Position numbers and translations under genes: made by a program. The notes under the pieces were generated by a model. The model saw only the letters and a program-made list of their open reading frames with translations, was not told the DNA's origin and did not search any database. Source: Planctomycetota bacterium (GTDB lineage: Bacteria; Planctomycetota; JBFWNO01). From it: 64,000 nt of DNA. Of this stretch, positions 11,394 to 54,117 are shown piece after piece (the stretch's first letter is position 1; every line of letters begins with the position of its first letter). The stretch is from contig JBFWNO010000003.1 in NCBI GenBank assembly GCA_050251015.1, positions 1,411-65,410 of the forward strand, written 5' to 3'.

Positions 11394-14300
11394 TCAATAC
11401 TGCATCTTGTGAAGGTGATTAACGCGCCCCTTGAAGTATTTAAGATTAAGAGCTTTGGTCACGTGTATCACAGCGACAGTGTGAGTGTATTTTCCCCTGT
11501 TGGGGTAAATGTCCCTTTCATAACGCTGGAGGTTGATTAGAACGAGTAGATCCTTATTACATTTCACGAGGATACTCTTCAAGACAGAAGGGGTACATAA
11601 GAGACGCATCCCGAAATCGTCTTCATCTTCCCTATCCTGGCCTTCCCTGCCCCATGCCTGCGCGGACAAAACTGGACGACCACGGGCATCCTTCCAGATA
11701 CGGCCAAATGAGTCACCTTTTGATAGAGAGCAGAATTCAACAAAGTCATGTGCCAAATACGATCTGGAATTGGCCGTTGACACACTATATGGATCGTGCT
11801 TATCGAGACGAGCATCATCGGACGGACAAACAATCCAAGGCGTGTATTCACTCATATTGCCTCTAAAATATTCTCTATTTTCTTCGTCCACTTGTAAGCA
11901 TGGAACACAAACTACCATCGGCTCTTCGCAAACCAACTTGCGCGCGAGAACGGCTGCTCTTTGCGGAGAAACCAAGGCAGATGAAATACGAACTTTGACG
12001 TTGTCTGCGGATGTCCATTGGCCATCGACAATAAGACCTTTGCTCATTCGCGGTCCACTGTTGATTAGCGTCAGAATTTTCTCGCGATCGCCAATAATCG
12101 ACAGCTCATTTTTCTTTCTTTCAAGGAGAATTTTCGCTGTATCGAGTGGCGTTCTGTCAGTCCCATCCGACAACCAGAGTCCATCATTGCTCGTGAGGGT
12201 ATATCGACCAAACCACTCCCTCCAAGGATCGCCATCATGCCAGCTATCATCTGTAACTGGATAATCCTTAAGCAACCTGCCTGCAACAATGAAGAGAGCA
12301 TGCCAGCCTAGTTGCTGTCCATACGTTTGATATCGGGTAGTCATCTCGTAGGAAGCATGCCTGTATCGAGACTCTCGCCCAGGTGAGTCATGCATAGCTT
12401 CGACCTTCGGATCGATTGCATGGACAATTTCCGCCATCTGATCGACGACTTTCCAGCACTGTTGGCCGAAGACACGTGCAAGATTGTCTACGTCATACTT
12501 GTGAAAGTCGTAGTCGAGATGGAACTGGAAGGCCGGTTCCGGCTGAGATTTTGGGCGGCCTGAGTAGGCGTCTTCGTTTTTCCGAAGCCTCTTCTTGAGA
12601 CGCCCGTGCGGAGAGCGGTCAGTATCGCGTACACATGTCGCTTGCTTGGCAGGAAGATTCAAATGCCCAGCACTCATACATATATGTAACGCCTGGCCGG
12701 CAAAGTGCCGCATTAGGACATGCGGATCAATATCATTAACTACAATTTGCAGTAGCTGATCCCTATAGCGCGCAATCTGAGCTGGAAAGTCCGTCGCTAT
12801 CCTAGCCAACGCAATGAGCAGCCATAGACGAGCATGCATGTAGAAGAACGGAAGCTCTTTCGCTTGAAAGGGCCCCGCACCTACCTCACTGAACTTTTCA
12901 ACAACTTTATCAATAACATCCCAGCGTCCGAATTTTGCAAATGTTCGGAGACTGTGGGCTGCGCGCCACCGATCAACGGCGTATGGAGAACCGAAGACGC
13001 GCCAAATTAGGCCTGCACTGATTTTCTGAATATCACCCGGCGGATAATGCCCCTCTGTCCAAGGACCATCGACGACACTATCCACCAGTCTCGCAGCCTC
13101 ACTAGAAAGGAGTCGTCTTAATGCGAGCTGTCCCTGTCCTGCATCAGACTCAGGACAGATAAGCGTTGCAAAGGCGAGCCAGACTGAGCCTGGAACCATA
13201 TTGTCCAAACGGGCACAGTTTTTGATGAGTTTAATAATTAGATCTGGAATCGGAACACCTGTAAGATCAGATATCTCCTTGATGTTGGAGCCGGACAAAC
13301 GGCCATCCACAACAAGATCATGGGAATGCGCATTGATGAGAATGTCGGCCAGATCCGCATAAATATCTGTAAGCGCAACTGATGATCTATTCCATGCTTT
13401 TTTAGCATCCTTTAACTCGACCAACTTCCAGTAGAAAAAGAGGTTATCAAGCGTTGCAATATTATGAATATATTTCGAGCGGAAACGATATGGAACCTTC
13501 CCTCTTAGATTTACAAAGAAGTCGCCTTTCAAATCGCACATGTTTCCAAGCGCATTAAACTCATCGATTGCTTTGATTAAAGATGATTCATCTATAGGAT
13601 CTGTCTTCACCACAATATGTTTGAGATCCTTCCGATTTTTTTTTCCACGCTCGTCCATTACTTTACGATTTTTGAGATTAGGAAAACTTGCATGGTTATT
13701 TCGATCATTACGCATATCCCTCACCTTGGCGTAGCAAGCGCGCGCTGCTACAAGATGTCTTGCAACTTCTGAAGACGGTCCAAGGGCTTCGTGCGCAAGG
13801 TTACCGAGCGTTTCGAATGTATCATCCATCGCAACATCGGGGTTATTGTCCTGGAACTGGTCAATCAATTCCTCGATAACCACTGGGTCAGGACCCGCCT
13901 GCTGACGCAACGCTTGCGCGAACTCCTTCGAGCTAGAAAAATAATGCTCAACCGGATTGGCAAGGCGGTTTAGAGCAAGCGCGACTTTCGCATCAATTTT
14001 ATTATCTCTAAGCAAGCCAATTAGATATGGAAGCAAGGTAACATTCAGGGCAATCTTTGACCTATCGTCCCAACGACTCAGCTTTGCTAACCCCCTCGGG
14101 CCGGCAACCCTAGATAAACCATGTCCATACGCGCCCCAGAAGAATTTCTCAGGCTCTTCCCCAATATTAAGTTCACAGATATTTGACAACGTGTGGAAAT
14201 CATGCTCGTCAAGCTCACTACCCTTCATTTGGGAGGCGAATAGCAAAAGTTCATTAGTAAACTGGTAGTCTCCCGAACCTATCGCGTCCATCTGCTCGAG

Positions 14301-17300
14301 CCCATAACGAAAGTACTTCGATGCTTCGCATATGCTTGCTGGCAACATGGCACGACCCAACGCTCCGAATAAAGATGCTCTATAGCCGACTTCGTCTTCC
14401 CTTTCGATCAAGGCGCGAACCTTTATCGCTTGTTCACCAGCCAGCGTTTGCAGCATCCTTTTTTGCGCAAGGATCGCAACGATATGTATGCGGCTATGCG
14501 CTCCAATTTTCTGGTTATCGATGCTGGACAATAGACGTTTTACAGTAGCCAGCTTAAGCTCAGGACGGAACCAGAAGGCAAAGAGCATAATATCGAAGCC
14601 CAACAAACGAAAGAAATGTTCAATCTCGTCAGGACGGTACGAATCGACGCTTCTGGAAGATTTCTCCCATGCTTTGATCAGCTCGTCAAATGTCTTGTCT
14701 ATTAAACTTGGACGCGATCCGAGAACCGCCGAAAACGCCCTCGTTAGTGCAAGTAACGGCTCAAGCCGCTGGCTTAAAAACCGCCCTGCACTATGATGAG
14801 ACTCATTGCTAAGGGAGTTGGATTTGGCGCCCTGTCCTTCGTCTTTCGTTTTGTTATTTAAGCATTTATCTATTCTTTCTTTTGCCTTGTCACGGAACTC
14901 CTTCCCTGCAACATCTTTTCCAATGCGAGAACAAATATGCACAAGCTCTTGTGGCAGTAAATCCCTGTCATGCACGGGTTGATTCTTAATAGCAGCGTGT
15001 AGCGCGATTCGAAACAAGAAGGGGAAAACATCGCGGTTATAGGAAACATCACGGAAAGCCCAAAGGTTAGGGCGCTTATGTGGAACACGCATGGATATTG
15101 CCATCGCCTCCGACTTCATGCCCAACGACAACGCGATCGCTGCAGACTTGCGCAACCCATCCTGTAGCTCATTTGAACGACTTCGATGAATGGCATCGCG
15201 AAGGTCGAGATTTGCTGCACCCTTGCAACGATTTGCAAGCTTGGCTACCAAGTCTTTGCATTTCGCCTTCGAAAGTTCGTTGAATGATAGGGCGGCGGCC
15301 AGAACACCAATGCTTGAGAGCACACTAACGAATTTGTTATGCCGCAATGATTGTTTAGAACGAAGTGACTGCGAGAGCCTCAAATAACCAAATATGTGTT
15401 CGCAGATCTCATATGCATACCAGTCTTTCCACCGATTTAGATATTGCATGGCATCCACGCAACGACCCTGCGAGATCATAAAGAAGGGTATCGCAGCGAT
15501 GTCTGTGGGCTCGGGGATATGATCGCGAGGCTCGTGATCACGGCTTTCGCGTCTGTAATGTTCGATCCATTCATAGCCCAAGTGAAAATGACGGGATGCT
15601 TCATCAGAGTCGCCAGAAAGCGTGTTGACTATGGCAAGACGCGTATGACGGGCTCCCCGCCAACCAGTTTTTGTCTCAAAAAGACGCCTCATCGCATCCA
15701 TGTCCTGGGCAGCCACAATGAGATCTGGATGATCGCGAATATAATCCCTGCCGCGCTCATCAACTGCCGCGATAGTTGAAAGTTCGAGCAACAATCGGAC
15801 AAGACTGTTGTAATCTTTTTTTTGGGCGGCGTGAAGTGTTGCCGATTTAAGTCTGGAATATCGCACATTCCTCTTGCCGATAGCACTCGTGATGGTCGAT
15901 GGTATACGATCATCAAAGGCAAGTTTGATAAGTTGTTCTCCATCGTTAAGTTGAAGTAAGAGTCCGGGTAACGCACGTGCTGCGTAGACAGAAACATCCT
16001 GTCGTTCAAATAGTTTAGTGGCCACATGGAGAATTGCCTCGCGTGATGACACATACCGTTTATTGACAAATGTCTCAGTCGGTTCATCACGAAACATTAG
16101 CCCCTGGTTTGTGCGCTCCAGAAACGGCGACAAATCCGAAGAAAAGCTTTTGATCGCGTCGAGTGCCATGGTATGCGCACCGGCATATTCTTCAAGGGGC
16201 ACTGGCGGCGGAAGTACGGCAAGACCGGCAAGGAACGCATTTATATCTTTCTCCTGGCATCCTCGCAGATTTGCGGCGGAAAGCGCGTCAGTAATTCTTT
16301 TCTGAATAAGATCTTCTAGTTCAATTTTTTTATCGATCTCGGACTGATCCAGCACCCCGCCGCCTTCTTTGAGGAGATATTCAAGCACGCGTGGATTCCC
16401 ACCTGAGCGAGCATGCGCAACATTGATTTTTATCTCTGAGGGATTTTTTAGCCTTGTGCGCATAAATGATGCTGTTTCACTCTTGCTAAAAGGTCGCAGC
16501 TCATACTCATCGTATTTGGCATGGGTTACCGGCTTGCGTTCAGGACGACAGGAAATTATGAGTTTGACTCCAGGTATTGGCTCGGCGTCCAAGCATTCAA
16601 GGAATTTAATTGGGAAACAGTCTTCACTACGCCGACGCGCAATAATATCTGCATTATCTATCGCATCGATTAGCAGAGCTAGCTTCTTCCCTGGTGTATA
16701 TCTTCTTATCGTTTCAAGAGACTGAATAAGACGCCTTCTGAAGGTTTTTAGCAAGCCTTGTACATCTGGATTGTCAGGCAAAATAGGATCACAAAAGCCA
16801 CGAAAGGCTAGAGTATTCGCTATATGGATTACCCCTTTCTTTGGCAGGTGACGGGAATCCTCGGGAGACCGGTAAGCACCTCCACCAAAGCAATCGAAAA
16901 AAACAACCTCATAATTGTTAGCCAACACTGTTTCGAGCGTACTCATAAAAACGGTCTTGCCGACTCCACCAGTTGCATGAATAAGTAGTGGCATGGCCGT
17001 ATTCGAAACACGAGCAATGACTTCAGCAAGCTGTTCACGCTCAAGAATATTGCCGACTTTAGGGAGCGTGGATTCACACGGCAATAAATCCTTCGGATCG
17101 CCGATTTGTAATGCACCCAGTATGTCAGTGCGCGTTATCAAGTTTCTGCCTGTGCCCGCACAACCAGCCTTTTCACGTACGAGCTCCCTCAGTTTTCCAA
17201 GTCTTGCTGAAGCATTGGCGTCATATGTAGCAGACCAGTCAATGAGCATACGCGTCAGTTCATTCTTTGTTTCACGAAGGTTGCCAGATCGGCCAAAAAG

Positions 17301-17843
17301 TTTGAACTTCCGTACGAATGACGCCAGAGGCTTGCCACTTAAACCAGAATATTTCTCAAGCTGCTTTGCCTGTCGCTCAGCATCACCCTTGCATGACGAA
17401 CAAGAAGCCAAGCCATCCATTGCCTCTATGAGTGACTTACTGATCGGCTGGTTTGTAACGAGCTGAAAATCGAGCTTTGCTTCAACGGCTTTAACACCGT
17501 ATTTCCTCATGTAATCTACATATGTCTTGCCGAACTTCACCACAGTATTCTTCGCATCAGCCGCCCGAAATTCCTTGTCTTCGCTAGCAATCGAGTACTT
17601 GAACTGGACAATGGTCGTCTTATTAGCCTGTTTAAATTCAGGGTTGCCTCCGAAATACTTTGTTAGGTCAGCGATATCGATAGTTTGTGTGGATGCATGG
17701 ATCTGGTCAGCTGTTGACAATCCCTCCACGGCAATGGCTGTCAGATCGCTTTCTGGCAAAAGGAGTTGCATGGCCATTCGTGCCGTCCACGCTTCATGAA
17801 ATTCGTGACCGTCACGAGATGCTCTGACTTTTTCTACTCTCAT
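11394..17843 (-). CDS. giant Cap4/DUF4297-like nuclease - STAND NTPase - long C-terminal sensor protein (Avs/NLR-like defence candidate)
   Basis: Uninterrupted 2,149-aa ORF, visibly AT-rich. N-terminus GHEFHEAWTARMAMQLL...IAVEGL...IDIADL...IVQFKYS (PD-(D/E)xK of Cap4 type). Walker A LLIHATGGVGKT, Walker B LALLIDAIDNAD, ISCRPE, LRPFSKSE, GGNPRVL (GxP-like). About 1,650 further aa carry no nameable motif. Confidence 0.85.
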   Translation of the reverse strand: MRVEKVRASRDGHEFHEAWTARMAMQLLLPESDLTAIAVEGLSTADQIHASTQTIDIADLTKYFGGNPEFKQANKTTIVQFKYSIASEDKEFRAADAKNTVVKFGKTYVDYMRKYGVKAVEAKLDFQLVTNQPISKSLIEAMDGLASCSSCKGDAERQAKQLEKYSGLSGKPLASFVRKFKLFGRSGNLRETKNELTRMLIDWSATYDANASARLGKLRELVREKAGCAGTGRNLITRTDILGALQIGDPKDLLPCESTLPKVGNILEREQLAEVIARVSNTAMPLLIHATGGVGKTVFMSTLETVLANNYEVVFFDCFGGGAYRSPEDSRHLPKKGVIHIANTLAFRGFCDPILPDNPDVQGLLKTFRRRLIQSLETIRRYTPGKKLALLIDAIDNADIIARRRSEDCFPIKFLECLDAEPIPGVKLIISCRPERKPVTHAKYDEYELRPFSKSETASFMRTRLKNPSEIKINVAHARSGGNPRVLEYLLKEGGGVLDQSEIDKKIELEDLIQKRITDALSAANLRGCQEKDINAFLAGLAVLPPPVPLEEYAGAHTMALDAIKSFSSDLSPFLERTNQGLMFRDEPTETFVNKRYVSSREAILHVATKLFERQDVSVYAARALPGLLLQLNDGEQLIKLAFDDRIPSTITSAIGKRNVRYSRLKSATLHAAQKKDYNSLVRLLLELSTIAAVDERGRDYIRDHPDLIVAAQDMDAMRRLFETKTGWRGARHTRLAIVNTLSGDSDEASRHFHLGYEWIEHYRRESRDHEPRDHIPEPTDIAAIPFFMISQGRCVDAMQYLNRWKDWYAYEICEHIFGYLRLSQSLRSKQSLRHNKFVSVLSSIGVLAAALSFNELSKAKCKDLVAKLANRCKGAANLDLRDAIHRSRSNELQDGLRKSAAIALSLGMKSEAMAISMRVPHKRPNLWAFRDVSYNRDVFPFLFRIALHAAIKNQPVHDRDLLPQELVHICSRIGKDVAGKEFRDKAKERIDKCLNNKTKDEGQGAKSNSLSNESHHSAGRFLSQRLEPLLALTRAFSAVLGSRPSLIDKTFDELIKAWEKSSRSVDSYRPDEIEHFFRLLGFDIMLFAFWFRPELKLATVKRLLSSIDNQKIGAHSRIHIVAILAQKRMLQTLAGEQAIKVRALIEREDEVGYRASLFGALGRAMLPASICEASKYFRYGLEQMDAIGSGDYQFTNELLLFASQMKGSELDEHDFHTLSNICELNIGEEPEKFFWGAYGHGLSRVAGPRGLAKLSRWDDRSKIALNVTLLPYLIGLLRDNKIDAKVALALNRLANPVEHYFSSSKEFAQALRQQAGPDPVVIEELIDQFQDNNPDVAMDDTFETLGNLAHEALGPSSEVARHLVAARACYAKVRDMRNDRNNHASFPNLKNRKVMDERGKKNRKDLKHIVVKTDPIDESSLIKAIDEFNALGNMCDLKGDFFVNLRGKVPYRFRSKYIHNIATLDNLFFYWKLVELKDAKKAWNRSSVALTDIYADLADILINAHSHDLVVDGRLSGSNIKEISDLTGVPIPDLIIKLIKNCARLDNMVPGSVWLAFATLICPESDAGQGQLALRRLLSSEAARLVDSVVDGPWTEGHYPPGDIQKISAGLIWRVFGSPYAVDRWRAAHSLRTFAKFGRWDVIDKVVEKFSEVGAGPFQAKELPFFYMHARLWLLIALARIATDFPAQIARYRDQLLQIVVNDIDPHVLMRHFAGQALHICMSAGHLNLPAKQATCVRDTDRSPHGRLKKRLRKNEDAYSGRPKSQPEPAFQFHLDYDFHKYDVDNLARVFGQQCWKVVDQMAEIVHAIDPKVEAMHDSPGRESRYRHASYEMTTRYQTYGQQLGWHALFIVAGRLLKDYPVTDDSWHDGDPWREWFGRYTLTSNDGLWLSDGTDRTPLDTAKILLERKKNELSIIGDREKILTLINSGPRMSKGLIVDGQWTSADNVKVRISSALVSPQRAAVLARKLVCEEPMVVCVPCLQVDEENREYFRGNMSEYTPWIVCPSDDARLDKHDPYSVSTANSRSYLAHDFVEFCSLSKGDSFGRIWKDARGRPVLSAQAWGREGQDREDEDDFGMRLLCTPSVLKSILVKCNKDLLVLINLQRYERDIYPNRGKYTHTVAVIHVTKALNLKYFKGRVNHLHKMQY

Positions 17844-18015: not shown

Positions 18016-20562
18016 TCATTCCTTCGCCACCACCGTGTCATACAGCCCATAAGTCCTGAGTCCCTCATGGCTCTCGATGCCAGTGTAGCGCAGTGACGCG
18101 TCTTCGTACCGTCGGAACGCGAATACTGCCTGGTTCATCTGCTCGGTGTTGAAGACCTTGAGTCGCACGAGCAGGTGGAAGTCCTTAACCGCCAGCCCAG
18201 TGACGGCCAGAAACAGATCTGGTTCCAGCTTGGTGATCACGTCTTGGAGTGTGTTCTCGCGGAAATCTGTCAGGTACATGAACGCGGGGATCCGCGTTGC
18301 GAACTTGATCAGCTTCTCCTGCACAAGCTTGCGCTTGGACTTATACTCCTTTTCCTCCTCGGTGAGCTGCTTCTTCTGCTTGTCGGTCAACTCCTTGTCT
18401 CTGCCCTTGTTCTTGAGCTCCTTGACCTTGTCGCTCTTGTTGATGATGGTCTCGATGATGTTGTCGCCAAGCGCCCGCCATCCCTCAATGCGCTCAACGG
18501 CGGCCATCGCCTCAGGGTTGTCCAAGATGCGGCGTAGGGTTTCGTTATCCACATTTACGAGCAGTGCACTCTCCCATTTGCGGGCCAGCAGCGTGGCCGA
18601 GGTGCCAGCCATCGCGATATCGAGGATGCCACCCGCATCGATCTGCGTCATGTTTGCGCCGTCGTAGGCCAGCACCGGCAGGAATGACACGAGATCCTTG
18701 ACGGCATTCTCGGGGTTGGGCTCGGTGGGCGACAGGCCGATCCCGTACTCAGAGATCTGCCGTAGCGCACGCGTGGGCGCGAAGTCAAAAACGAAGCAGA
18801 CAGGCTTGAGCACCTCCTCCTCGTTCGGATTGTCGCCATGAGGGTTCTTAATGGCCCATGGCGACTGAACGCGGAATGCGGCCTGAAAGTAGGTTTCCGG
18901 TGACTTGAGGTTGCGTAGCATCAGGATTGATGACCACTGCGGCACCGTCACTCCGGTGGCGAGCTTTCCGCACGAGAGCGTGATGGTCTTGGTCTCGAAT
19001 CCGCTACCGAGGGCTTTGCGCACGGGCGGCAACGCCTCCAATCCAATGCCAGCCGAGGCGCCAGCGGCGATGATCACCTGATAGTCGCGCCAGAAGGTGT
19101 TGTGCCTCTCTGCCAGCAGGTTTGCCATCGCGTGGCAAGCCGCGACATTAGGGAGGAACCAAAAGGAGTGCTGAAGGTAGGGTAACAGGCGCGCGTCCGA
19201 ATATGGAAATGGCGGCCGAGTGCCCGTCTTCAGATGTTCGGCTGACTTAGGAGCATATCCTCCCCGAATGATCTCCAGCCACTTCTGCACATCGCTTGCG
19301 TGTTTGAACCGCGCCTTAGTCCCTGTGCCCGATGCCTCGAAGAAGGCGTTGAGATCGAACTCGTCGAACTCCCCAGCGCTTGCAATTGCCAGAAGTTCAT
19401 CCGGCATCTGGTAGGTGAGCAGGCGCATCTGTGGCAGTGCACCATAGGGGTTCCGGTTGCCGGGATTCCTGGCGGCGAATTCCTCCTTGGCACGCTGCTC
19501 ATCGGTGTAGGTCCAGTTGTAAATCTGTTCTTCGATAAATTCGCCGGTGGCCAACGCTTTGAACGGTGTTCCAGATAGGTAGAGACATGCCTTGGTCGTG
19601 ATGGGCAGGAACTCGGTTTCCCTTTCCAATGGTTCCTGCAAATCGGCGATTTTCTCTTTCTGGCCCTTGGCATCTTCCAACCGGGCCTCCACCCTGGAGA
19701 TCGCCTCTTCTTCGTCCTCGAATAGTTCCTTCGCACTATCCCGCCATGCCCCGAAGTGGTACTCATCGAAAACCACAAGGTCCCAATTCACCTCATGGAG
19801 CCATTCATTCTTGGCCTTGATGTTCCCGGCCTTGTCACGGCCGAGCAGGTCCTGGAAAGAGCCGAAATAGACGAGCGGGTTTTTCGAGGAGGCCTTTGTT
19901 GGGTCGCCACCTGAAGCTTTCGACAGGTATTGCCAGCCATCAAAATCCACATGGGATTTGAGGTCAATCTCCCACGCATCCTCAACGGCGGGTTTGAAAG
20001 TAACCACAAGCACTCGCTTGGCGCCGAGCTTTTTCGCGAGTTGGTAGGTGGTGAAGGTCTTGCCGAAGCGCATCTTCGCGTTCCAGAGGAACCGAGGGAC
20101 CGCATGCCTGTCCTCCTTCCAGATGGAATGGAAGTAAGCGTGCGTCTTGTTCACAGCCTCGATTTGCTCGCGGCGCATCGGGAAGGTCTCGTGATGCGTG
20201 CCGGTGAACATCTTGCCACAGCGCAGTTCGGCGAGCACGGTCTTCACGTCATTGACCGAGCAACGCATCCATTCCAGCTCGGCATTTTCAAATTTCTTCT
20301 TAGCGAGTATGGCGCGCACCTGGTGATCTGTGATGATCGTGCCATCGTCGCGCTCGGCTGGCTCGTCAAGCTCGATCTTGTAGTTCTTGATCGCGGCAGT
20401 CTTGAGCTGCTCGGCAACACGCTGCTTCACGCTCCGCGTGGTTTGACCAACTTTGAGTAGCCCCGCATGCGCCCTGTCGTCAATCGAATATGCGTAGATG
20501 CGTGGACGGGCTTCCGGTTTGGGCGCAAGGATTTCTTCTATGCGCTTACTCATCACCCTCAC
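18016..20562 (-). CDS. T5orf172/GIY-YIG-like domain fused to SF2 (DEAH, type III Res-like) helicase
   Basis: 848 aa. N-terminus RIYAYSIDDRAHAGLLKVGQTTRSVKQRVAEQL...ELEWMRCS matches the T5orf172/MUG113 pattern. Helicase motifs: MRFGKTFT (I), LVVFDEYHFGAW (II), LYLSGTPF (III), QAAFRVQSP (VI). K/E-rich coiled C-terminal region. 17-nt overlap with the upstream MTase gene. Confidence 0.85.
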   Translation of the reverse strand: MRVMSKRIEEILAPKPEARPRIYAYSIDDRAHAGLLKVGQTTRSVKQRVAEQLKTAAIKNYKIELDEPAERDDGTIITDHQVRAILAKKKFENAELEWMRCSVNDVKTVLAELRCGKMFTGTHHETFPMRREQIEAVNKTHAYFHSIWKEDRHAVPRFLWNAKMRFGKTFTTYQLAKKLGAKRVLVVTFKPAVEDAWEIDLKSHVDFDGWQYLSKASGGDPTKASSKNPLVYFGSFQDLLGRDKAGNIKAKNEWLHEVNWDLVVFDEYHFGAWRDSAKELFEDEEEAISRVEARLEDAKGQKEKIADLQEPLERETEFLPITTKACLYLSGTPFKALATGEFIEEQIYNWTYTDEQRAKEEFAARNPGNRNPYGALPQMRLLTYQMPDELLAIASAGEFDEFDLNAFFEASGTGTKARFKHASDVQKWLEIIRGGYAPKSAEHLKTGTRPPFPYSDARLLPYLQHSFWFLPNVAACHAMANLLAERHNTFWRDYQVIIAAGASAGIGLEALPPVRKALGSGFETKTITLSCGKLATGVTVPQWSSILMLRNLKSPETYFQAAFRVQSPWAIKNPHGDNPNEEEVLKPVCFVFDFAPTRALRQISEYGIGLSPTEPNPENAVKDLVSFLPVLAYDGANMTQIDAGGILDIAMAGTSATLLARKWESALLVNVDNETLRRILDNPEAMAAVERIEGWRALGDNIIETIINKSDKVKELKNKGRDKELTDKQKKQLTEEEKEYKSKRKLVQEKLIKFATRIPAFMYLTDFRENTLQDVITKLEPDLFLAVTGLAVKDFHLLVRLKVFNTEQMNQAVFAFRRYEDASLRYTGIESHEGLRTYGLYDTVVAKE

Positions 20563-22126
20563 CCATTGGTCGTATCATACTCTCAATGAATGCGACTTCG
20601 CTCTTCGTAATGCCATACTTCGAGTACAGTAGATCGTCAGTCCAAGTTCTGCTCCAGGACTGCTGTGGCACCCATGTGTAAGTCGATCGCAGGGCATGCT
20701 GGGTGATTTTTCTCAATGACACGAGAAAACGGAATAGGCGAGTCCGATAGTAGCTACTGAAACTCTGAGCTGACCTCTCGGATTTGAATGGAGCCACAAC
20801 AAGGTATGATTGAGTGCACGCTGATGGGGGCGCGGCTACAATCTCTTTGCCTAGGATTTGATGCGGGAAAGTCTCACCAGCCCCATAAGCTTCGGGCACT
20901 AGAACCTTCCATGTATCGATAGTGTTTGCATTCTTGCGAATGTCTCCACGCTTCATGAAACCGGTTGTTCGCTTGCCCTTACTGATCAGGTGGAGCTCAA
21001 TCTTGCCGCTCCCACCTTTCTCGGTCCAGCCCTCGAAGTTCGTCGCGATACCGAATGGCGTATCACCTGACACGAGCTCAAAGACCGAAGGCTCCTTCTT
21101 GGAGAGAACCTTCCTCAGGATTCCAAGTGCGCGTTCGTCACGAACGAAAACATCAAACTCGCCTAGCTGCCGATTGCGTTGAAAATGTCTTTCACCTCCG
21201 GCCATGCGTGTGACATTACAGGTCCCGTTGTATGCGCCATCCCAAAGGAAGTAGCACACGCCACCCTTGATTTGAACGCCGGGGAAGGCATCGCCAGAAT
21301 CGGGAAAGTCCGTGAGGCTACGGAGATGGCCTTCGCTGAGCATCTGCGCCCTGAACTCATCGAGCCCTCGCCCGCCCGCCATCCATCGCGAAGGCGTGAC
21401 AAAAGAGGCAAACCTCGGTTCAAGTTTGAGTGCCTGCTGGACAAAAAGATGGTAGATCGAGGAGTCGCTCGAACCCCCCGCGCCGCCAGTCATTTGGTAC
21501 GGTGGATTGCCGATGATCACATCGAATTGCATATTACCTCCAAACAACTCGGCTAGCCGAGCCTTTATATCGCTGGTGTGAATGAAAGCGTAGGCATGGG
21601 TTTCAAGTCCCTCCTCACGATCAAAAATCGACCGGGGCGCTCCGCAGTACCCACACTTCGCACCATCCCATGTGTGCTCCATGTGTTTGAACCAAATATT
21701 CCCATCATTGCTGGCAAACGACTTGGCAATGGAGTGCTTACCTTTGGCGTTCTTCGAACAATACACGCTCCGTCGCGCCAGCAGGCTCGTGAGGTGCGTG
21801 ATACCGATGCCGAACACCTGTTTTGTTAGAATGTGATTCACGCGTTCATCAAGGTTGGGTATTGCCTTGGCCAAGCCCTTGGTAAGGCGGCTGGTGATCT
21901 CGCGCAGGAACACGCCTGTCTTCGTACACGGATCAAGAAACTTCACCGTCTTGTCCGCCCATATGTTCGCGCCGCCTTTGTCTGCCGCCCATGCCTCGGC
22001 CAGCGTGTCCAGCATCTGGTTTGCAAATTCCGGTGGCGTGAAAACCTCGTCGTTGGAGAGGTTCGCAATACACGTCAGCACATCCGGGTTGCGGCCACGG
22101 AGCGCAAAGCCAACCTTGGCGTTCAT
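20546..22126 (-). CDS. Eco57I-like N6-adenine DNA methyltransferase with C-terminal target-recognition-like region
   Basis: 526 aa. Motif X EVFTPPEFANQML, degenerate motif I FLDPCTKTGVFL, catalytic motif IV FDVIIGNPPYQM. C-terminal TPSRWMAGGRGLDEFR...GVCYFLWD resembles RM-type methylases. Confidence 0.9.
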   Translation of the reverse strand: MNAKVGFALRGRNPDVLTCIANLSNDEVFTPPEFANQMLDTLAEAWAADKGGANIWADKTVKFLDPCTKTGVFLREITSRLTKGLAKAIPNLDERVNHILTKQVFGIGITHLTSLLARRSVYCSKNAKGKHSIAKSFASNDGNIWFKHMEHTWDGAKCGYCGAPRSIFDREEGLETHAYAFIHTSDIKARLAELFGGNMQFDVIIGNPPYQMTGGAGGSSDSSIYHLFVQQALKLEPRFASFVTPSRWMAGGRGLDEFRAQMLSEGHLRSLTDFPDSGDAFPGVQIKGGVCYFLWDGAYNGTCNVTRMAGGERHFQRNRQLGEFDVFVRDERALGILRKVLSKKEPSVFELVSGDTPFGIATNFEGWTEKGGSGKIELHLISKGKRTTGFMKRGDIRKNANTIDTWKVLVPEAYGAGETFPHQILGKEIVAAPPSACTQSYLVVAPFKSERSAQSFSSYYRTRLFRFLVSLRKITQHALRSTYTWVPQQSWSRTWTDDLLYSKYGITKSEVAFIESMIRPMGEGDE

Positions 22127-22812
22127 TCGGCCACCTTTGTGGTGTCGCCGGACGCGGCGGCGGCCAGCTCACTCACCGACATGGGTGGATAGGTCCTCTC
22201 TGGCGTGAAGATCTTGTGCTTGCCAAGAGGTGCGAAAAGCGGGTGCTGTTCGTTGAAGGACGACATGTGGGTAAGGATATCCAAAAGGAAATCGCGGCGC
22301 TGGAACTTCCCCTTGCCCAGGTAGCCCCACTCGGCAAAAGTGATCGGGCGGTCGTCATGGGTGAGCATCTTTAGCGCGTCACCGTGAACGAGGTTCAGGG
22401 ACAGAACACAGAACGCGGCGCGATAGGTTTCGTCCGACTCATCAACATTCAGGTATTCGGCAAGAATCTTCAGCAGATTCGCACGGCACTCAGCGATGTT
22501 GTCGGTCAATAGCTCAATGCCATAGATGCACATCAGCGCGAGGAGCGCATAGTGCCGCCGCTCGAATTCGGACTTGCCGTACTTGATTTCCACAGCGGCG
22601 AGCTTCCGTTTCAAAATCTTCACAAGAAAGTTGCCACTGCCGCACGCTGGCTCCAGAAATCGGGAATCGATGCGCTCCGTCTCGCCCTTCACCAAGTCGA
22701 GCATCGCTTCGACCATCCACTCCGGGGTGAAGACCTCGCCATGGTCGGAAACGCGTTGCCTGGATTTGACATAATTTTCAGAATGGCGCATGCGGTGACA
22801 TACTTCCATCAT
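22123..22812 (-). CDS. methyltransferase N-terminal half-like protein (SAM-binding motifs X and I, no NPPY)
   Basis: 229 aa. EVFTPEWMVEAML (motif X), canonical FLEPACGSGNFL (motif I), YGIELLTDNIAECRANL. No (N/D)PPY motif anywhere. ATGA overlap (22123-22126) with the downstream full-length MTase. Confidence 0.7.
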   Translation of the reverse strand: MMEVCHRMRHSENYVKSRQRVSDHGEVFTPEWMVEAMLDLVKGETERIDSRFLEPACGSGNFLVKILKRKLAAVEIKYGKSEFERRHYALLALMCIYGIELLTDNIAECRANLLKILAEYLNVDESDETYRAAFCVLSLNLVHGDALKMLTHDDRPITFAEWGYLGKGKFQRRDFLLDILTHMSSFNEQHPLFAPLGKHKIFTPERTYPPMSVSELAAAASGDTTKVAE

Positions 22813-22870: not shown

Positions 22871-23218
22871 TCAACCATCCTTCTTGAAGTAATACCCGAC
22901 AATAATTCCAGCGAGCACCCCGGTTGTTCCATCACTGATCAGATTCATATAGGCCAGCGTCCCAATACAGGCAAAAGACAAGATCAACATGATCCCATTG
23001 TGCCAGTACTTTGCCTTCCGGGCTTCTGGAGTATTGCCAAATAAATTGGCGGCGTGTTTTAAGAAGGACTCCATGAATGCCTTGACTTCAGCATTGCGCA
23101 TCAACTCCAGCCAAGCCGTGAGATTGTCCGCTGTGGTGGAATTGGTAGTCCGCTCATTTTTTTCGCTAATTGAACGCTGAGCGGATGTTTGATCAGTCTG
23201 CTCTTCTCTGCTCATCAA
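22871..23218 (-). CDS. small membrane protein (two C-terminal TM helices)
   Basis: 115 aa, AT-rich. C-terminus has WHNGIMLILSFACIGTLAYMNLI and GVLAGIIVGYYF. ATGA overlap with the upstream 101-aa gene. Confidence 0.5.
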   Translation of the reverse strand: MMSREEQTDQTSAQRSISEKNERTTNSTTADNLTAWLELMRNAEVKAFMESFLKHAANLFGNTPEARKAKYWHNGIMLILSFACIGTLAYMNLISDGTTGVLAGIIVGYYFKKDG

Positions 23219-23520
23219 ACGCCCCGGGATTTAAGGTCTAGCTCAGCTTCCGCAGGAACTAATATTTCCTCATCACCATCAATTGACCATTCTCTACTAT
23301 GAAGCACCTCACAGGTAACAAGGGACAGATCGTCCCAAGGGAAGTAGGGAACAGGCTTGCCAAATACCATTGGCGCTGCAATTCCAAATCCCATAGATGC
23401 GCGAGCTCTTGCCGACAATTCATCCTCCGCTCGGATAATCACCTCTCCGTAGTGGGTGCTGGCACGCCAGTTGTTATGGTTTTGATTCGATGGTGTAAGT
23501 TTCCAAATCTTCATGGCCAT
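23215..23520 (-). CDS. hypothetical small soluble protein
   Basis: 101-aa ORF translationally coupled (23215-23218) to the small membrane protein. No known motif. Confidence 0.45.
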   Translation of the reverse strand: MAMKIWKLTPSNQNHNNWRASTHYGEVIIRAEDELSARARASMGFGIAAPMVFGKPVPYFPWDDLSLVTCEVLHSREWSIDGDEEILVPAEAELDLKSRGV

Positions 23521-23567
23521 GCGTCTCTACTCCATGTCCCGCGAGCACAACAGTCGGCCCTCACATT

Positions 23568-23933
23568 TTACACCTCAAACTCCAAAAACACACTCACCCC
23601 ATCTAAATTCCCCAACGGCACCCAATTCCCACTCCCCGAGTACCCCGCCACCCCGACAATCCCCCCTGGATTCTTCGTCCCGCCATCCGTGACGAGCTGA
23701 TTGTTGAAGATGATCATGTGGGGCGCACCCCCATTCTGCATCCCCAGATTCACGGGATAGGGCTCAAAGGTTCCATCTGGTGTAGTAGGCGTGGTGTTGG
23801 CGGGGTTGAGGGCTCGCATGAAATTTGGAAAGGAGGAATGACAGACCACAAATTTCCCCTGGAAACTGATGGCAGGACTTAGTGTGTCGGTAATCCCGCT
23901 GGTCCGAAGAGCCACAAACGCCGAGCCAGCCAA
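23568..23933 (-). pseudogene. truncated paralogue (C-terminal about 120 aa) of the prophage tail-fibre-like gene 27054..28211
   Basis: LNPANTTPTTPDGTFEPYPV / GGTKNPGGIVGVAGYSGSGNWVPLG aligns with LNPSNTTPLTPDGTLEPYPV / SGTKKPGNVAGVATYSGSGNWVKLG of the 385-aa protein. The whole N-terminal beta-propeller-like part is missing. Confidence 0.6.
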
Positions 23934-24027: not shown

Positions 24028-25182
24028 CTACGTCAGTTCATCCGGATCATGAACGATTACGACTCCGTTGGGCAAGGCGTATCCTTTGCCTTCGAGCGAC
24101 GCTCTCTTGTCCCGAAAACCCCTGAGTGCTCTCAAAATTTCCGCCTTTAGAGAAGAACATGCATTTCCCAATAATGCCTTTCCTATCGGGCCATACAACC
24201 CAATCACGTCACCGAATGGTGTGATACCCAATGGCAATATCGACAACTGCCCCACTTGAGGCAACCGTGTGTTTTCGCCGAGTTCTGAAAATGGCGAGTG
24301 CATCTTTCGTCCAGCAACCAGTTGATCAGCAAGGATGTCATGCCCCATGAACTGAAGTGCTTTCGCGTAGGCGAGACGTATTACCATGTCCGATTCTGGA
24401 TTCTTCTCTTGCCCCCGTGATCCATCTGGGTCCTTGATTATCGTTGTGGTTTCGGATTTGGGATGAATTCCTTGGATACAGAAGTGTGTCCCTATGACAA
24501 CGCGACTACATGAGTTTCTGAGCAGCAGGTTTACTGGCTCGACATTCTGTACTTGCTTCCAACCTTCAGGATCAATTCTTTTCGTGATGCTTTTTTTGGT
24601 CCCGGTTGCGCCTTTGCTCTCAGCAAGTACGGCTTTCCCATCCGCACCTTCACAAAAATAGTCCGGCCTCGCCTCAGAAGTTGCATTGGCAACATATACC
24701 AACTCTCTGCGCTTGATACAGGCATAGGCGTCTGCGATGTGCTCTAGATCGAAGTGCTCGCGAAGGAGATAACATGAGATTCCTGCGGCTACTTCCTCCG
24801 ATGCGACAGCCATAAGCCGTGGATCTTTATCTTGGACACCTTCGTAAAATCGCAAGTCCGGATGTGATCCCGCAAAATCGCCACCATAACGAAACAGAGC
24901 AAACCACGATCTCGGATCCCAGGACGTGGTTGCGAGAGTCGTGGCTATGCCCGTTTCAATAAGCACGCGATGTAGGCTGACCTGGATTCTCCCGTTACTA
25001 GGTAGCGGTCGCTGCAACGCGAACGCTGGCGGCATGACCTCAACGATCCATTCACGCAAATCTGAGGGGCTTGGCGCGAACAGAATAGGGAACGGCGAGA
25101 GGCGGTGTCGTACCCGCCAGAATGGGCACCAGTGCTCAGCCAGTCGGGTATTGCGATTCAATATTGAAGGCGGAATCTTCAA
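24028..25182 (-). CDS. hypothetical protein with PD-(D/E)xK-like core (orphan defence-cassette candidate)
   Basis: 384-aa ORF (TTG start in the track, true start uncertain), AT-richer than the flanks. Candidate nuclease core EARPDYFCEGADGKAVLAESKGATG (PD...ExK). Flanked on both sides by tail-fibre 3' remnants. Confidence 0.55.
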   Translation of the reverse strand: MKIPPSILNRNTRLAEHWCPFWRVRHRLSPFPILFAPSPSDLREWIVEVMPPAFALQRPLPSNGRIQVSLHRVLIETGIATTLATTSWDPRSWFALFRYGGDFAGSHPDLRFYEGVQDKDPRLMAVASEEVAAGISCYLLREHFDLEHIADAYACIKRRELVYVANATSEARPDYFCEGADGKAVLAESKGATGTKKSITKRIDPEGWKQVQNVEPVNLLLRNSCSRVVIGTHFCIQGIHPKSETTTIIKDPDGSRGQEKNPESDMVIRLAYAKALQFMGHDILADQLVAGRKMHSPFSELGENTRLPQVGQLSILPLGITPFGDVIGLYGPIGKALLGNACSSLKAEILRALRGFRDKRASLEGKGYALPNGVVIVHDPDELT

Positions 25183-25374: not shown

Positions 25375-26418
25375 CTATATCTCCTTGACCTTCGTTGATG
25401 CCTGACCCTCCGGCTCCTCCAGTTCAATCAAGAAAAATGGCCGCTTGACGACCCCGATCTCATGCGCCACAAGGAGCCGCGCCAGTTGCTCCCCATTCAT
25501 CAGCCCCACAGGCACTGCATCAGACCGTTCGGCCTCCCGCTTCGCCCCGGGGCTGAAATCACTCGTCGTGATGATGAGCCCCTGCTCGTGCGTTCCAAGA
25601 CTACCACGCACCTGTTGCACCACTGGGGACTGGACATTGGCCTTCCACTTTTTTGCCTGTATGGCCATGCGGGTGCGGATCGTCCCGCCGACGACGAGAG
25701 TGGCCCGCACATCGATACCCCCATCGCCGCTCTTGCGGTACACCTCGATGTCATCGAAACCCATCTCGGCCAGAAGGCGCCCGATCAGCACTTCGAACTG
25801 GCCCCAGCTCAGCGCCAGCAGACGGGCCAACAGCGCCTTCCTGGCGCGCTGATTCTGCTGATCGATCTCTAAGACCAGACCCTGGCCCATCCATTTACTC
25901 AGCCCAAACATGCCGCGCGCATGTTGCACAAAGAGGGGTCCCTCCCCCTGGCGCTGGGCCCGCTTGCTTGCGGTATAAAGCTGTGCGGCCATGGTTGCAT
26001 CCGGAGTTTTCCCCTGCGTGTCGAGCCAACCCAGTTTGAGAGCCTTGGCAGTGATGTCGCGGAAATGCATTGGCTTTTTGTTGCCGAACTGTTCAAGCAC
26101 CTTTTCAGCCGCCTTGAGGAAGGAATATGTTGTTGCCGACACCTTGGTCTTTGGTTCCACCGGTCGCTTGGATGATGAGGACGGCTTTGCTCCATTTTCA
26201 TGCAGGCCAAAGGTCTGTGAGGCCACAAGCACAAACGGCGACTTGTCACCACTCTTCTTGATGTCTGAGTAAAGCCGGGCACCGACGGTCGCGGCGGGGG
26301 TCTTTCCTTCGCTACGCCAAAGTCCTCCGGCCGTCATACGCTTGGTGATCTCCCTGGCGTGAAGGGGCTCACCGGCTTCCCGGAGGATCTGTACAGCGGC
26401 GGCACGGACATTCATCAT
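25375..26418 (-). CDS. Mrr-family type IV restriction endonuclease with two N-terminal HARE-HTH domains
   Basis: 347 aa. Two HARE-HTH units (GLWRSEGKTPAATVGARLYSDIKK...FVLVASQTFGL; GWLDTQGKTPDATMAAQLYTASKR...FVQHARGMFGL). C-terminal Mrr_cat core: FEVLIGRLLAEMGF...SGDGGIDVRA...MAIQAKKW...GLIITTSDFSPGA. Confidence 0.85.
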   Translation of the reverse strand: MMNVRAAAVQILREAGEPLHAREITKRMTAGGLWRSEGKTPAATVGARLYSDIKKSGDKSPFVLVASQTFGLHENGAKPSSSSKRPVEPKTKVSATTYSFLKAAEKVLEQFGNKKPMHFRDITAKALKLGWLDTQGKTPDATMAAQLYTASKRAQRQGEGPLFVQHARGMFGLSKWMGQGLVLEIDQQNQRARKALLARLLALSWGQFEVLIGRLLAEMGFDDIEVYRKSGDGGIDVRATLVVGGTIRTRMAIQAKKWKANVQSPVVQQVRGSLGTHEQGLIITTSDFSPGAKREAERSDAVPVGLMNGEQLARLLVAHEIGVVKRPFFLIELEEPEGQASTKVKEI

Positions 26419-29101: not shown

Positions 29102-29904
29102 CAGATGCCGATGTCCAGCGTCGAAAAATCCCCCAGCTCATAGACCTTCTCGATGTAAACCGCGATTGGCTTCTTGATGATCTGCTTGACCGCAGTATCC
29201 ACATCCTTGCCATACTGCACCCAGAGGTATTCCCAGCCCTTCTTGGCGGGCACGAGGATGTCGCCGACCTGGAAGGAGGTGCGGTTGGGTAGGCCAGCAA
29301 AGCGGAAGGTGATCTCCCAAAGCTCGCTGACACGGCGAGATCCCGAGGCTCCGAGGAAGAGGACCTCGCCCGCCTGGAATCCCTTGAACGGCGCGTCGTT
29401 CACCCTTCCCGTCAGGCGCATGATGATCCCGCGATACGCAAAGGTCACATCCGCATCTTCAAAATATTGTGTCTCGGTGAAGTTGTAAACGGGCACCGTG
29501 ATGTCGACGCCCTGCACCTGCTCGCCGTCAAAACCTATGGCGCCCTTCAATTCCACAGAAGCCGCTGGGCCATGCCTTGAAATCGTAGAAAGACTCTGGG
29601 TGATGTGCTGTTGGCCCCCACCCGTGTCGAAGGTTTCCACCGGGTCCGGGGTCGCCCCGTCGTCATCCACCTCGGGGATCCCGTAATGGGCCGTCACCCG
29701 CCAAGAGGTGGCATCCAGCCTCTCCTCCAGGATGATCTCTTTCCTGAGAAGGCCGCTATATATAAGAGGTATAGCGTTTTGGGCGTCTGTTTTGACCTGG
29801 GCCTCATCTATTGCGCCAGAAACAAGGTATTGGACCTCAGCAGTGGGCCGGGCCGAGACCGTTTCTGTGCGCCTGTCGAAAAGCTCGGTGACGATGGCGG
29901 GCAT
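29101..29904 (-). CDS. distal tail protein, putative
   Basis: 267-aa ORF directly downstream of the tape measure gene (1-nt overlap). Call by position. Confidence 0.5.
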   Translation of the reverse strand: MPAIVTELFDRRTETVSARPTAEVQYLVSGAIDEAQVKTDAQNAIPLIYSGLLRKEIILEERLDATSWRVTAHYGIPEVDDDGATPDPVETFDTGGGQQHITQSLSTISRHGPAASVELKGAIGFDGEQVQGVDITVPVYNFTETQYFEDADVTFAYRGIIMRLTGRVNDAPFKGFQAGEVLFLGASGSRRVSELWEITFRFAGLPNRTSFQVGDILVPAKKGWEYLWVQYGKDVDTAVKQIIKKPIAVYIEKVYELGDFSTLDIGI

Positions 29905-34362: not shown

Positions 34363-34745
34363 GGGGCATTCTCCACCTTGACGAGCTTCGTGTGGATCCG
34401 GAGGGTCTTGCCGTAGAGGTCGCTCTCCCGAAAGTGCGGCTCCCCGCCCGGGGCCAACACCTCGTGCGACATGATGATGGTGCCGCGTTCCTCTATAATC
34501 CGGTCTCCCCTGAGAGGAGTGGTGCCGGGGAACAGGGCTGCAAAATCCTCGGCACGCACCAGGTAATCCCGGCTGACCACACGGCCCTCGGCACCCAGGC
34601 CTTCACCGAGCTTGAAGATCGTCTTGCCGATGGTAGCCTGGATGTCGAGCTCGACGGGCCCGCGCTTGTAGCGGACCAGTTTGGTGGTGTGCTCGTGGCG
34701 CATATCCTCGAGCCAGTTCGATCCGTTTTCGAGGATGTTGTTCAC
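34359..34745 (-). CDS. head-tail joining protein, putative
   Basis: Start chosen at GTG 34745, which overlaps the TGA of the upstream gene (GTGA). The longer ORF N-terminus (to 34862) is G/R-rich and overlaps the upstream CDS. Confidence 0.45.
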   Translation of the reverse strand: MNNILENGSNWLEDMRHEHTTKLVRYKRGPVELDIQATIGKTIFKLGEGLGAEGRVVSRDYLVRAEDFAALFPGTTPLRGDRIIEERGTIIMSHEVLAPGGEPHFRESDLYGKTLRIHTKLVKVENAP

Positions 34746-35755: not shown

Positions 35756-36090
35756 CGGGCCTCCAGCCTGACCTGGATGCGATCAGCACCCACGGGTCCT
35801 GCCGTGACGGCACGTCCGAAGAGTTTGTTGGAGCCCACGGTTGGGGTGACACGTTGATTGGTGGAGTCCCAGTAGAGGAGTGTGCCCAGCGGGATGTCCA
35901 CAGTGGAGTCCTTGGGCACCTCATACACACCCGTGAGCGCGAGGGCCCCAAGGGTGTTCGCCGGGATGGGCCGCTTGGTCACCCCCACGAGGTCCCCCAC
36001 GACCACCACCGCCCCCGGGGCCACATCCGCCCCGGGCCTGTAATCCACCGTGTCGCCGTCACTGGCTAGCTGAGCCACAAAAGTCGTCAT
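35752..36090 (-). CDS. DUF2190-family head decoration protein
   Basis: 112 aa. DGDTVDYRPGADVAPGAVVVVGDLVGVTKRPIPANTLGALALTGVYEVPKDS...GTLLYWDSTNQRVT. Directly downstream of the capsid gene. Confidence 0.65.
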   Translation of the reverse strand: MTTFVAQLASDGDTVDYRPGADVAPGAVVVVGDLVGVTKRPIPANTLGALALTGVYEVPKDSTVDIPLGTLLYWDSTNQRVTPTVGSNKLFGRAVTAGPVGADRIQVRLEAR

Positions 36091-54098: not shown

Positions 54099-54117
54099 CC
54101 AGCTGAGCTACATCCCC
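54041..54117 (-). tRNA. tRNA-Asp (anticodon GUC), CCA encoded
   Basis: Minus strand: GGGGATG TA GCTC AGCTGGTTA GAGC G CCGCC CTGTCAC GGCGG AGGTC GAGGG TTCGAGT CCCTT CATCCTC G CCA. All four stems pair. Anticodon loop is CU-GUC-AC. Confidence 0.9.

Follow-up and report, generated by a model that had tools for sequence, protein, structure and literature searches.

We analysed a window of 64,000 nucleotides from the metagenome-assembled genome of a Planctomycetota bacterium (assembly GCA_050251015.1, contig JBFWNO010000003.1, positions 1,411 to 65,410), in which a program-made list of open reading frames (ORFs) contained three overlapping minus-strand ORFs, here called g1, g2 and g3. With considerable confidence we assign this operon to the 'DrdVI family' of REBASE, an ATP-dependent, Type IIG-like restriction-modification (RM) system with one recognition module. 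In its domain content the operon is Type ISP-like. The three-gene set is a known, REBASE-listed family, to which this copy is new. The genes are:

22123..22812, minus strand: g1, M1 subunit; ORF of 229 aa, with the likely start Met8 at 22791 giving 222 aa
20546..22126, minus strand: g2, M2 subunit; ORF of 526 aa
18016..20553, minus strand: g3, R subunit; 845 aa, or 848 aa from an alternative GTG start at 20562 (18016-20562)

Gene layout and assignment to the DrdVI family

g1 and g2 overlap by 4 nt (ATGA). In the deposited contig annotation g3 starts at the ATG at 20553, resulting in 845 aa, and P0001 matches it with 100% identity and coverage. Because a GAGGG Shine-Dalgarno sequence precedes this ATG, the overlap between g2 and g3 is more likely 8 nt (ATGAGTAA) than the 17 nt given in an earlier note on this DNA. 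The three ORFs and the 4-nt overlap of that note stood, its motif readings for g1, g2 and g3 could all be re-read in the translations, and its anatomy of the three genes was right. The deposited start of g1 is Met8 (22791), which gives 222 aa (P0121); orthologues of g1 are about 218 aa long and 74-85% identical.

The components that define the DrdVI family were all found in the operon. g1 is a protein of the expected size (approx. 210-250 aa) with the N-terminal half of a gamma-class N6-methyladenine (m6A) methylase, g2 is a methylase of Eco57I type that has NPPY and, at its C-terminus, a recognition domain, and g3 fuses a GIY-YIG-type endonuclease to a translocase. They stand in the order M1-M2-R in one operon, the same order as on pDrdVI. 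This 15.5-kb plasmid of Deinococcus wulumuqiensis NEB 479 was among the plasmids of cultured organisms on which the operon was detected by tblastn, and it is annotated with a DNA methyltransferase of 212 aa, an Eco57I-domain methylase of 539 aa and a DEAD/DEAH helicase of 851 aa. Between the window and pDrdVI the identity was 68% for M1, 53% for M2 (full length) and 77% for R. Within M2 the N-halves were near-identical, while the recognition domains were divergent and approx. 35-40% alike in an alignment judged by eye. The two systems share the three genes, their order, the overlapping junctions, the K[ST]G motif I of M2, the canonical motifs of M1 and the T5orf172-helicase R; they differ in that DrdVI is located on a small plasmid, whereas the window operon lies in a probable prophage cargo region of a Planctomycetota genome.

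M1-2.DrdVI is listed as a IIG enzyme encoded on pDrdVI, cloned in E. coli ER2796, with 6mA at GCAGCC (PMC6430315, Table 1), and New England Biolabs labels the family 'split methylase/RM genes'. DrdVI has further been described as 'a fused translocase and REase' (restriction endonuclease) with a GIY-YIG domain (PMC4996451). Pairs of M1 and M2 make m6A in E. coli at GCAGCC (DrdVI) and at GCACY (MaeIV), the only published cases. M1-M2.MaeIV from Methanococcus aeolicus (GCACY, m6A) was placed in the same split methylase/RM family by its authors; we liken it to the window operon by description, and unlike the latter it is archaeal. The earlier claim that the three genes match no classical RM type therefore fails, since they match a family named in REBASE whose prototype methylates GCAGCC. 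The two readings offered with that claim, a heteromeric split methylase and a GIY-YIG-type module serving as nuclease, agree with the family description of New England Biolabs. Because the M2 recognition domain is hypervariable and strongly divergent from that of M2.DrdVI, the site recognised by the present allele probably differs from GCAGCC.

Relatives also occur with R and M2 joined. In PADLOC a single REase_MTase_IIG profile of 1359 positions was matched first by g3 (profile positions 154-800) and further along by the C-half of g2, and therefore fused versions exist. Such helicase-fused relatives (L094, L083) share the T5orf172 domain, the superfamily 2 (SF2) helicase and the K[ST]G-type methylase and recognition modules with the window operon. 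They differ in carrying R and M2 as one polypeptide (nuclease-helicase-methylase-target-recognition domain), so that there are two genes instead of three, and their helicase part is 33-34% identical. On Enterococcus faecium p211b-a a 1445-aa 'Eco57I ... methylase domain-containing protein' is found with a 248-aa 'N-6 DNA methylase' (see also P0440/L083).

The operon was compared with the other RM types that resemble it. With YeeA(DnmA)-YeeB-YeeC, or OspHL35III, it shares a gamma-class m6A methylase with a single recognition domain, an SF2 helicase and a GIY-YIG/T5orf172 domain within one operon. In that system a single MmeI-family methylase acts without an M1, and helicase and nuclease are separate, whereas in the window the methylase is divided in two, M2 is of Eco57I type and accompanied by M1, and nuclease and helicase are one protein. 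The MmeI-like YeeA-YeeB-YeeC/OspHL35III systems were proposed to be helicase-dependent Type IIG-like RM systems by Morgan et al. and Blow et al.

Type ISP enzymes such as LlaGI and LlaBIII share with the operon a nuclease, an SF2 translocase, a gamma-class m6A methylase, a C-terminal recognition domain and a single asymmetric site. Each of them is one polypeptide whose nuclease belongs to the Mrr-family PD-(D/E)xK type, and a separate SAM-binding (S-adenosylmethionine-binding) subunit is lacking. The window operon, in contrast, comprises three ORFs, and T5orf172 was the sole nuclease-like domain detected (Pfam at E<=10, PDB profile search).

Type III systems keep methylase and helicase-nuclease as separate subunits, as does the operon. 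Their Mod subunit is a beta-class methylase with a central recognition domain, and their Res subunit has a C-terminal PD-(D/E)xK nuclease. In the window operon, by contrast, M2 has the gamma-class motif order with the recognition domain at its C-terminus, and the nuclease, a T5orf172 domain of GIY-YIG type, is located at the N-terminus of g3, the C-terminus of which gave no nuclease match. The example compared was EcoP15I (Mod2Res), and an asymmetric site with modification of one strand is plausible for the window system, as in Type III. A separate HsdS, as in Type I, was not found: there was no fourth conserved gene in 80 loci, and the variable recognition domain lies inside M2. MADS, BREX and DISARM were rejected, as no defining component was detected beyond weak methylase-motif matches.

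The protein collection contained more than 8000 relatives of g3, the best 120 of which were all 85-88% identical and came from many phyla. In contigs representing one genome per species, close R orthologues were present in at least 592 species genomes, and the best 80 loci were analysed. R in these loci was 81-86% identical to the window R, and the taxa included Planctomycetota, Nitrospirota, Acidobacteriota, Chloroflexota, Verrucomicrobiota, Pseudomonadota, Bacillota, Actinomycetota, Bacteroidota, Spirochaetota, cyanobacteria and others. Where at least 2.4 kb was available upstream of the g3 orthologue, the order M1-M2-R was kept in 60 of 65 loci, with identities to the window copy of 64-79% for g1 and 52-69% for g2. 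The same genes in the same order in so many genomes lie far beyond chance. Clustering of all ORFs in the 80 loci gave no fourth conserved gene, and blastn detected no relative in complete E. coli genomes. A 750-aa ORF in L079 that spans g1 and g2 was considered as a fusion and rejected as an overlapping-frame artefact.

Single loci departed from the common layout. In an Acidimicrobiaceae locus (L068) the R orthologue was intact, but neither M1 nor M2 was present in the 7 kb to either side of it, and a Bacteroidetes locus (L065) had only the C-half of M2, 337 aa starting MQFDVIIGNPPY, with no M1 within 3.7 kb upstream. Genes were inserted among M1, M2 and R in 10-15 of the 60 operons (e.g. L036, L009, L006, L041), and they encoded RhuM, PDDEXK_3, YhcG/DUF1016, Fic-HTH proteins and PIN toxins. 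RhuM, PDDEXK_3, YhcG/DUF1016, Fic and PIN genes are the usual hitchhikers inside Type I RM operons.

The two methylase subunits

g1 is the N-terminal half of a gamma-class N6-adenine methylase; it has motifs X to III, whereas motif IV and a recognition domain are absent. g2 is an Eco57I-type gamma-class N6-adenine methylase with an N-half of its own, an NPPY catalytic loop and a C-terminal target-recognition domain. Their main elements are:

22624..22653, minus strand: g1 motif I, EPACGSGNFL, canonical SAM-binding loop (from the translation)
21905..21934, minus strand: g2 variant motif I, DPCTKTGVFL, with Lys in place of the first Gly of GxG (from the translation)
21497..21508, minus strand: g2 motif IV, NPPY, catalytic loop; N207, P208 and P209 invariant, Y210 at least 90% conserved
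20717..21226, minus strand: g2 target-recognition domain, aa 301-470, hypervariable between orthologous operons

The translation of g1 contains EVFTP and EPACGSGNFL, and NPPY is absent. The Pfam matches, to MmeI_Mtase (2.2e-7) and N6_Mtase (4.4e-6), were confined to the N-terminal third of each model. In an alignment of 47 sequences motif X was invariant, and so were E47, P48, A49, G51, G53, N54 and F55 of motif I, Y90, G91 and E93 of motif II (YGIEL) and H136-G137-D138-A139 of motif III. For M1, the PDB yielded marginal matches only in sequence and profile searches, to M.BseCI and an HsdM, over motifs X-I.

As only half a methylase is encoded, g1 could be a decaying, functionless fragment of a second methylase gene. 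Decay is difficult to reconcile with a conserved length of about 218 aa, 64-85% identity across phyla and invariant SAM motifs, nor would it be expected of a gene that is present in 60 of 65 operons, has relatives at 31-41% identity and overlaps g2 translationally. We rejected this explanation on the conservation and consider it next to impossible.

For g2 the matches were strong, with Pfam Eco57I at 1.5e-33 and the PADLOC profiles MTase_II at 8.6e-45 and REase_MTase_IIG at 7.9e-40. Its translation contains EVFTP, DPCTKTGVFL and GNPPYQ, and the motif order X-I-...-IV-target-recognition domain is that of the gamma class. P66, K69, G71, L74, R75 and E76 were invariant in 46 sequences, and the motif I pattern DPxxK[ST]GxFL was found family-wide. 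K-x-G, mostly as K[ST]G, was present in nearly all representatives with a readable motif I, down to 35% identity, and also in the helicase-fused forms. In motif II of g2, VFGIGIT, the acidic residue is gone. The odd motif I of M2 is an invariant trait of the family and not decay or a lesion of the present copy. M2.DrdVI has the same FLDPCTKSGVFL and FGIGIT, so that an enzyme with this variant of motif I can be active, at least in the presence of M1. The earlier label 'degenerate' for motif I of g2 is misleading, because the Lys never varies within the close family and recurs in distant and fused relatives, and M2.DrdVI, with the same motif, is active when co-expressed with M1.

The recognition domain was the variable part of the operon. 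Over 67 loci the mean pairwise identity was 0.41 for aa 301-470 of g2, as against 0.76 for its N-half, 0.66 for its catalytic part and 0.84 for g3, and aa 301-470 fell into 17-20 clusters at 60-70% identity. Such variability is the signature of a specificity-switching target-recognition domain. In an insertion of about 90 residues between motifs II and IV of M2, the residues C123, H151, C158 and C161 were invariant (aa 123-161, window 21644-21760); they could form a zinc-binding site, in a region where the AlphaFold model is unreliable.

The AlphaFold2 model of M2, built with 46 close homologues, had a mean pLDDT (predicted local distance difference test) of 54 and was confident only in the core of the N-half and in parts of the catalytic sheet. 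Foldseek with this low-confidence model gave CamA, LlaGI, BrxX, DrdV, HsdM and M.TaqI as best matches, with E 5e-8 and 1e-7 for the methylase domains of LlaGI and LlaBIII, respectively. The result shows a gamma-class methylase and nothing finer. Sequence and profile searches of M2 and of R against the PDB gave no match.

Relatives of the two subunits show in which combinations they occur. A profile-profile comparison aligned residues 16-64 of g1 with residues 24-82 of g2 (E 1.6e-5), and thus the N-halves of g1 and g2 are paralogous over motifs X-I. In every arrangement inspected, among loci with enough flank, K[ST]G-type methylases were accompanied by M1-like genes. Distant loci at 31-47% identity hold the same trio; among them are L091 and L093, whose M1-like genes are 31% and 41% identical to g1, each with a T5orf172-helicase gene following. 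Two loci consist of two genes, one that joins T5orf172, helicase and methylase and, immediately upstream and overlapping its start, an M1-like gene. They are L083 (37% identity to g1, E 5e-34) and an Enterococcus faecium plasmid (L094), on which the M1-like gene is annotated 'N-6 DNA methylase' and is 40% identical to g1. The fused enzyme of L085 is preceded by a different kind of N-half protein without NPPY. Two fused relatives with canonical GxG were inspected: upstream of P0433 is an unrelated leucine-rich-repeat gene, and P0456 starts 84 nt from its contig end.

M1 and M2 also occur joined. P0417 (L087) is a natural M1-M2 fusion of 786 aa, followed in a 2-Mb contig by a 791-aa T5orf172-helicase gene. 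This fusion argues for a physical association of M1 and M2. P0408, P0449, P0450 and P0495 (also L092:2014-3441) are single-chain methylases of about 475-510 aa that consist of an M1-type N-half and an M2-type C-half; in P0408 the N-half is 40% identical to g1 (E 1e-30), and the identity of the M2-type C-half is 54%. The two halves are therefore structurally compatible, and an M1-type N-half can form one fold with an M2-type C-half. Proteins of about 320-340 aa that correspond to the C-half of M2 from Met199 were considered as true split forms and dropped, because the one example checked, P0379, has just 16 nt in front of it on a contig of 1,059 nt and is a gene-calling artefact.

Two further contigs were inspected. 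The neighbours of P0450 are small phage-like genes, including a C5 methylase and a KwaA-domain gene but no helicase, and P0450 looks like an orphan or phage methylase. The contig of P0412 carries two related systems back to back: a fused T5orf172-helicase-methylase gene (1318 aa) is divergent from an adjacent complete three-gene set, the products of which are a 258-aa protein, a 507-aa Eco57I-type protein and a T5orf172 protein longer than 929 aa. A single M1-like gene can be seen there.

How M1 and M2 divide the methylation reaction can be read in more than one way. We see an even chance that M1 is required and contributes the SAM pocket. M1, which has the SAM-binding half only, and M2 would then form a heteromer that is the active m6A methylase. 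A more specific and tentative proposal, which we consider rather unlikely, is a bipartite active site, where the beta1-beta3 SAM-binding half of M1 would act in trans to the beta4-beta7/NPPY half of M2, and the K[ST]G N-half of M2 would be a duplicated pseudo-SAM domain. This N-half might be stabilised by the invariant Cys/His cluster and might be re-used, e.g. for docking or gating the translocase-nuclease. The bipartite site is compatible with the evidence because M1-type and M2-type halves are found fused, M2 has lost the acid of motif II and M1 is never missing from K[ST]G-type systems with sufficient flank. If true, the operon would encode a naturally split adenine methylase of the gamma class, and the assembly of its SAM pocket would set how modification and restriction are balanced.

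One point weighs against a necessary M1. In the M2 model the beta1-alphaA-beta2 unit of its own N-half was predicted at pLDDT 75-95 (residues 31-110), and because of this confident prediction M2 does not obviously need a partner in trans to complete its fold. The AlphaFold2 model of M1 (47 close homologues, mean pLDDT 54) was uninformative and unusable. In both published cases, DrdVI and MaeIV, M1 and M2 were expressed together, and in the literature we found no published test of the need for M1 in catalysis, nor of M1 alone.

It is a genuine possibility, if short of a probable one, that M2 is self-sufficient and that K[ST]G is a variant SAM loop. M1 would then stand outside the active site as a regulatory, SAM-sensing or assembly subunit and might, for example, couple SAM availability or methylation status to the R subunit. 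Motif X, the strictly conserved motif I variant and NPPY are all kept in M2, and its N-half is predicted as a normal beta-alpha-beta unit, whereas M1 is without a catalytic loop or recognition domain. In P0417 the M1-like module precedes a complete M2-like module, the N-half of which is not replaced, and M.TaqI is likewise without the first Gly of GxG (EPACAHGPFL). A self-sufficient M2 fits less well with the loss of its motif II acid while motifs I, II and III of M1 are invariant, with the direct fusion of M1-type N-halves to M2-type C-halves in single-chain methylases, and with the names M1-2 and 'split' used by New England Biolabs.

The T5orf172-helicase subunit

g3 consists of a T5orf172 nuclease domain (GIY-YIG superfamily), an SF2 translocase of ResIII type and a highly conserved C-terminal domain. 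Its translation contains IYAYSI...LLKVGQTTRSVKQRV...LEWM, MRFGKT, DEYH and QAAFRVQSP, and Pfam gave T5orf172 at 2.1e-6 and ResIII at 8e-7. The parts of g3 are:

20227..20496, minus strand: T5orf172/GIY-YIG-like nuclease domain, aa 20-109 of 845 (Pfam T5orf172 1.4e-7 for the isolated segment)
18754..20184, minus strand: SF2 helicase/translocase core, aa 124-600 (Pfam ResIII)
20056-20073, minus strand: Walker A, MRFGKT; G164-K165-T166 invariant
19756-19767, minus strand: DEYH; D263-E264-Y265-H266 invariant
18859-18885, minus strand: helicase motif VI, QAAFRVQSP; Q557, R561 and Q563 invariant
18019..18753, minus strand: C-terminal region, aa 601-845; a coiled-coil stretch and the most conserved part of the protein

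The GIY-YIG-type positions Y20, Y22, K34, G36, T38, R40, R45, E94 and W95 were invariant, as was helicase motif III (S327-G328-T329). The highest column conservation of the protein, 0.92-0.99, was found at aa 741-845. Pfam and PDB searches with the C-terminal region were empty and gave no recognisable domain; we infer that this region is a docking surface for M1 and M2. Neither Pfam (E<=10, applied to the N-terminal, middle and C-terminal segments in turn) nor a PDB profile search detected a PD-(D/E)xK or other second nuclease in g3. The lack of this motif that was noted earlier thus holds, including for the helicase C-terminus, where a standard nuclease of this kind had been the alternative.

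The R orthologues of 33 loci from many phyla (among L008-L082) aligned to the window copy without gaps over 845 codons, and identity at codon positions 1, 2 and 3 was 0.88, 0.91 and 0.53. The divergence of R is therefore old and purifying selection is very strong, also on the C-terminal domain. Such conservation is unusually high for a defence gene.

We propose that M2 would read a short, probably asymmetric site through its variable C-terminal domain, and that its NPPY loop would flip and methylate an adenine. R would dock on the methylase, probably via its highly conserved C-terminus. Where the site is unmethylated, the SF2 motor of R would translocate DNA with ATP and the N-terminal T5orf172/GIY-YIG nuclease would cut. 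R would restrict by translocation-coupled cleavage. T5orf172 is an active nuclease fold in Gp88/Odn of phage ICP1 (PMC8263062), and Iyer and colleagues listed it among the nucleases of N6A-modifying RM systems.

Restriction by R has to be set against the literature, where we found no report of restriction, ATPase activity, cleavage or phage restriction for any member of the DrdVI family. The passages of a 2025 review of RM biology on GIY-YIG, Type ISP and YeeA do not mention the family. For the analogous DnmA-YeeB-YeeC operon of B. subtilis, transformation efficiency was unchanged by the loss of m6A. The system might accordingly mark DNA without cleaving it, in epigenetic or BREX-like exclusion, with T5orf172 only binding DNA. 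The lack of a cleavage report found for the DrdVI family would fit this, as would the related DnmA-YeeB-YeeC operon, for which no restriction phenotype is reported, and the first description of T5orf172 as a DNA-binding module, as cited in PMC9973331. Cleavage is favoured by the GIY-YIG-type Tyr, Arg and Glu positions, which are invariant across phyla, by the proven nucleases among T5orf172 proteins in ICP1 and by a recognition domain that diversifies as in restricting RM systems. The operon moreover lies in a defence island beside Avs3a-like and Mrr-like genes, and other loci carry hitchhiker genes typical of Type I operons. We regard marking alone as improbable.

Genomic setting and significance of the operon

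The GC content of the operon stretch was 0.46-0.55, compared with approx. 0.62 elsewhere in the window. The features around the operon are:

11394-17843, minus strand: Avs3a-like STAND nuclease/ATPase, 2149 aa, immediately downstream of the RM operon (NCBIfam Avs3a 2e-237, PADLOC 2.5e-218)
22871-23933: three small ORFs between the RM operon and the 384-aa and HARE-HTH genes, no matches
24028-25182, minus strand: 384-aa ORF beside the HARE-HTH/Mrr_cat gene, no match in Pfam, NCBIfam or PADLOC
25375-26418, minus strand: protein with two HARE-HTH stretches and Mrr_cat (PADLOC PDC-S02 4.8e-35; weaker Type IV REase match)
27054-54117: prophage, structural genes and recombinase
down to approx. 27054: prophage tail genes
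29904-32225: tape measure
34742-35755: cement protein
36090-38102: protease-capsid fusion
38086-39492: lambda-type portal
41538-43994: terminase, gpA-type
44991-46223, minus strand: ParB_N and N6_N4_Mtase fusion, inside the prophage beside the terminase region
52449-54098, plus strand: large serine recombinase, overlapping the end of tRNA-Asp
54041-54117, minus strand: tRNA-Asp

The NCBIfam match of the Avs3a-like protein reached 791 bits, under the 2800-bit cut-off, and only the first approx. 970 residues matched; its C-terminal sensor half therefore differs from that of the reference Avs3a. The ParB_N and N6_N4_Mtase fusion is probably an orphan methylase of the phage. The RM operon and its defence neighbours stand in lower-GC DNA just beyond the prophage tail genes. 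Because phage structural genes, and then a serine recombinase at tRNA-Asp, lie directly beyond them, the RM system is probably cargo at the prophage end.

We propose to annotate the three genes as a DrdVI-type RM system (M1, M2 and R), the specificity of which is probably new. The DrdVI family ranges over most bacterial phyla, Enterococcus plasmids and at least one archaeon, and yet, beyond two methylation motifs, this large family is uncharacterised and mechanistically unexplored. Two questions are raised: why every member keeps a second, catalytically dead, SAM-binding half-methylase, and why the R subunit is conserved like a housekeeping protein. Both are already familiar to the specialists of REBASE and New England Biolabs, and what the window contributes to them is one more data point with some comparative evidence, not a discovery.

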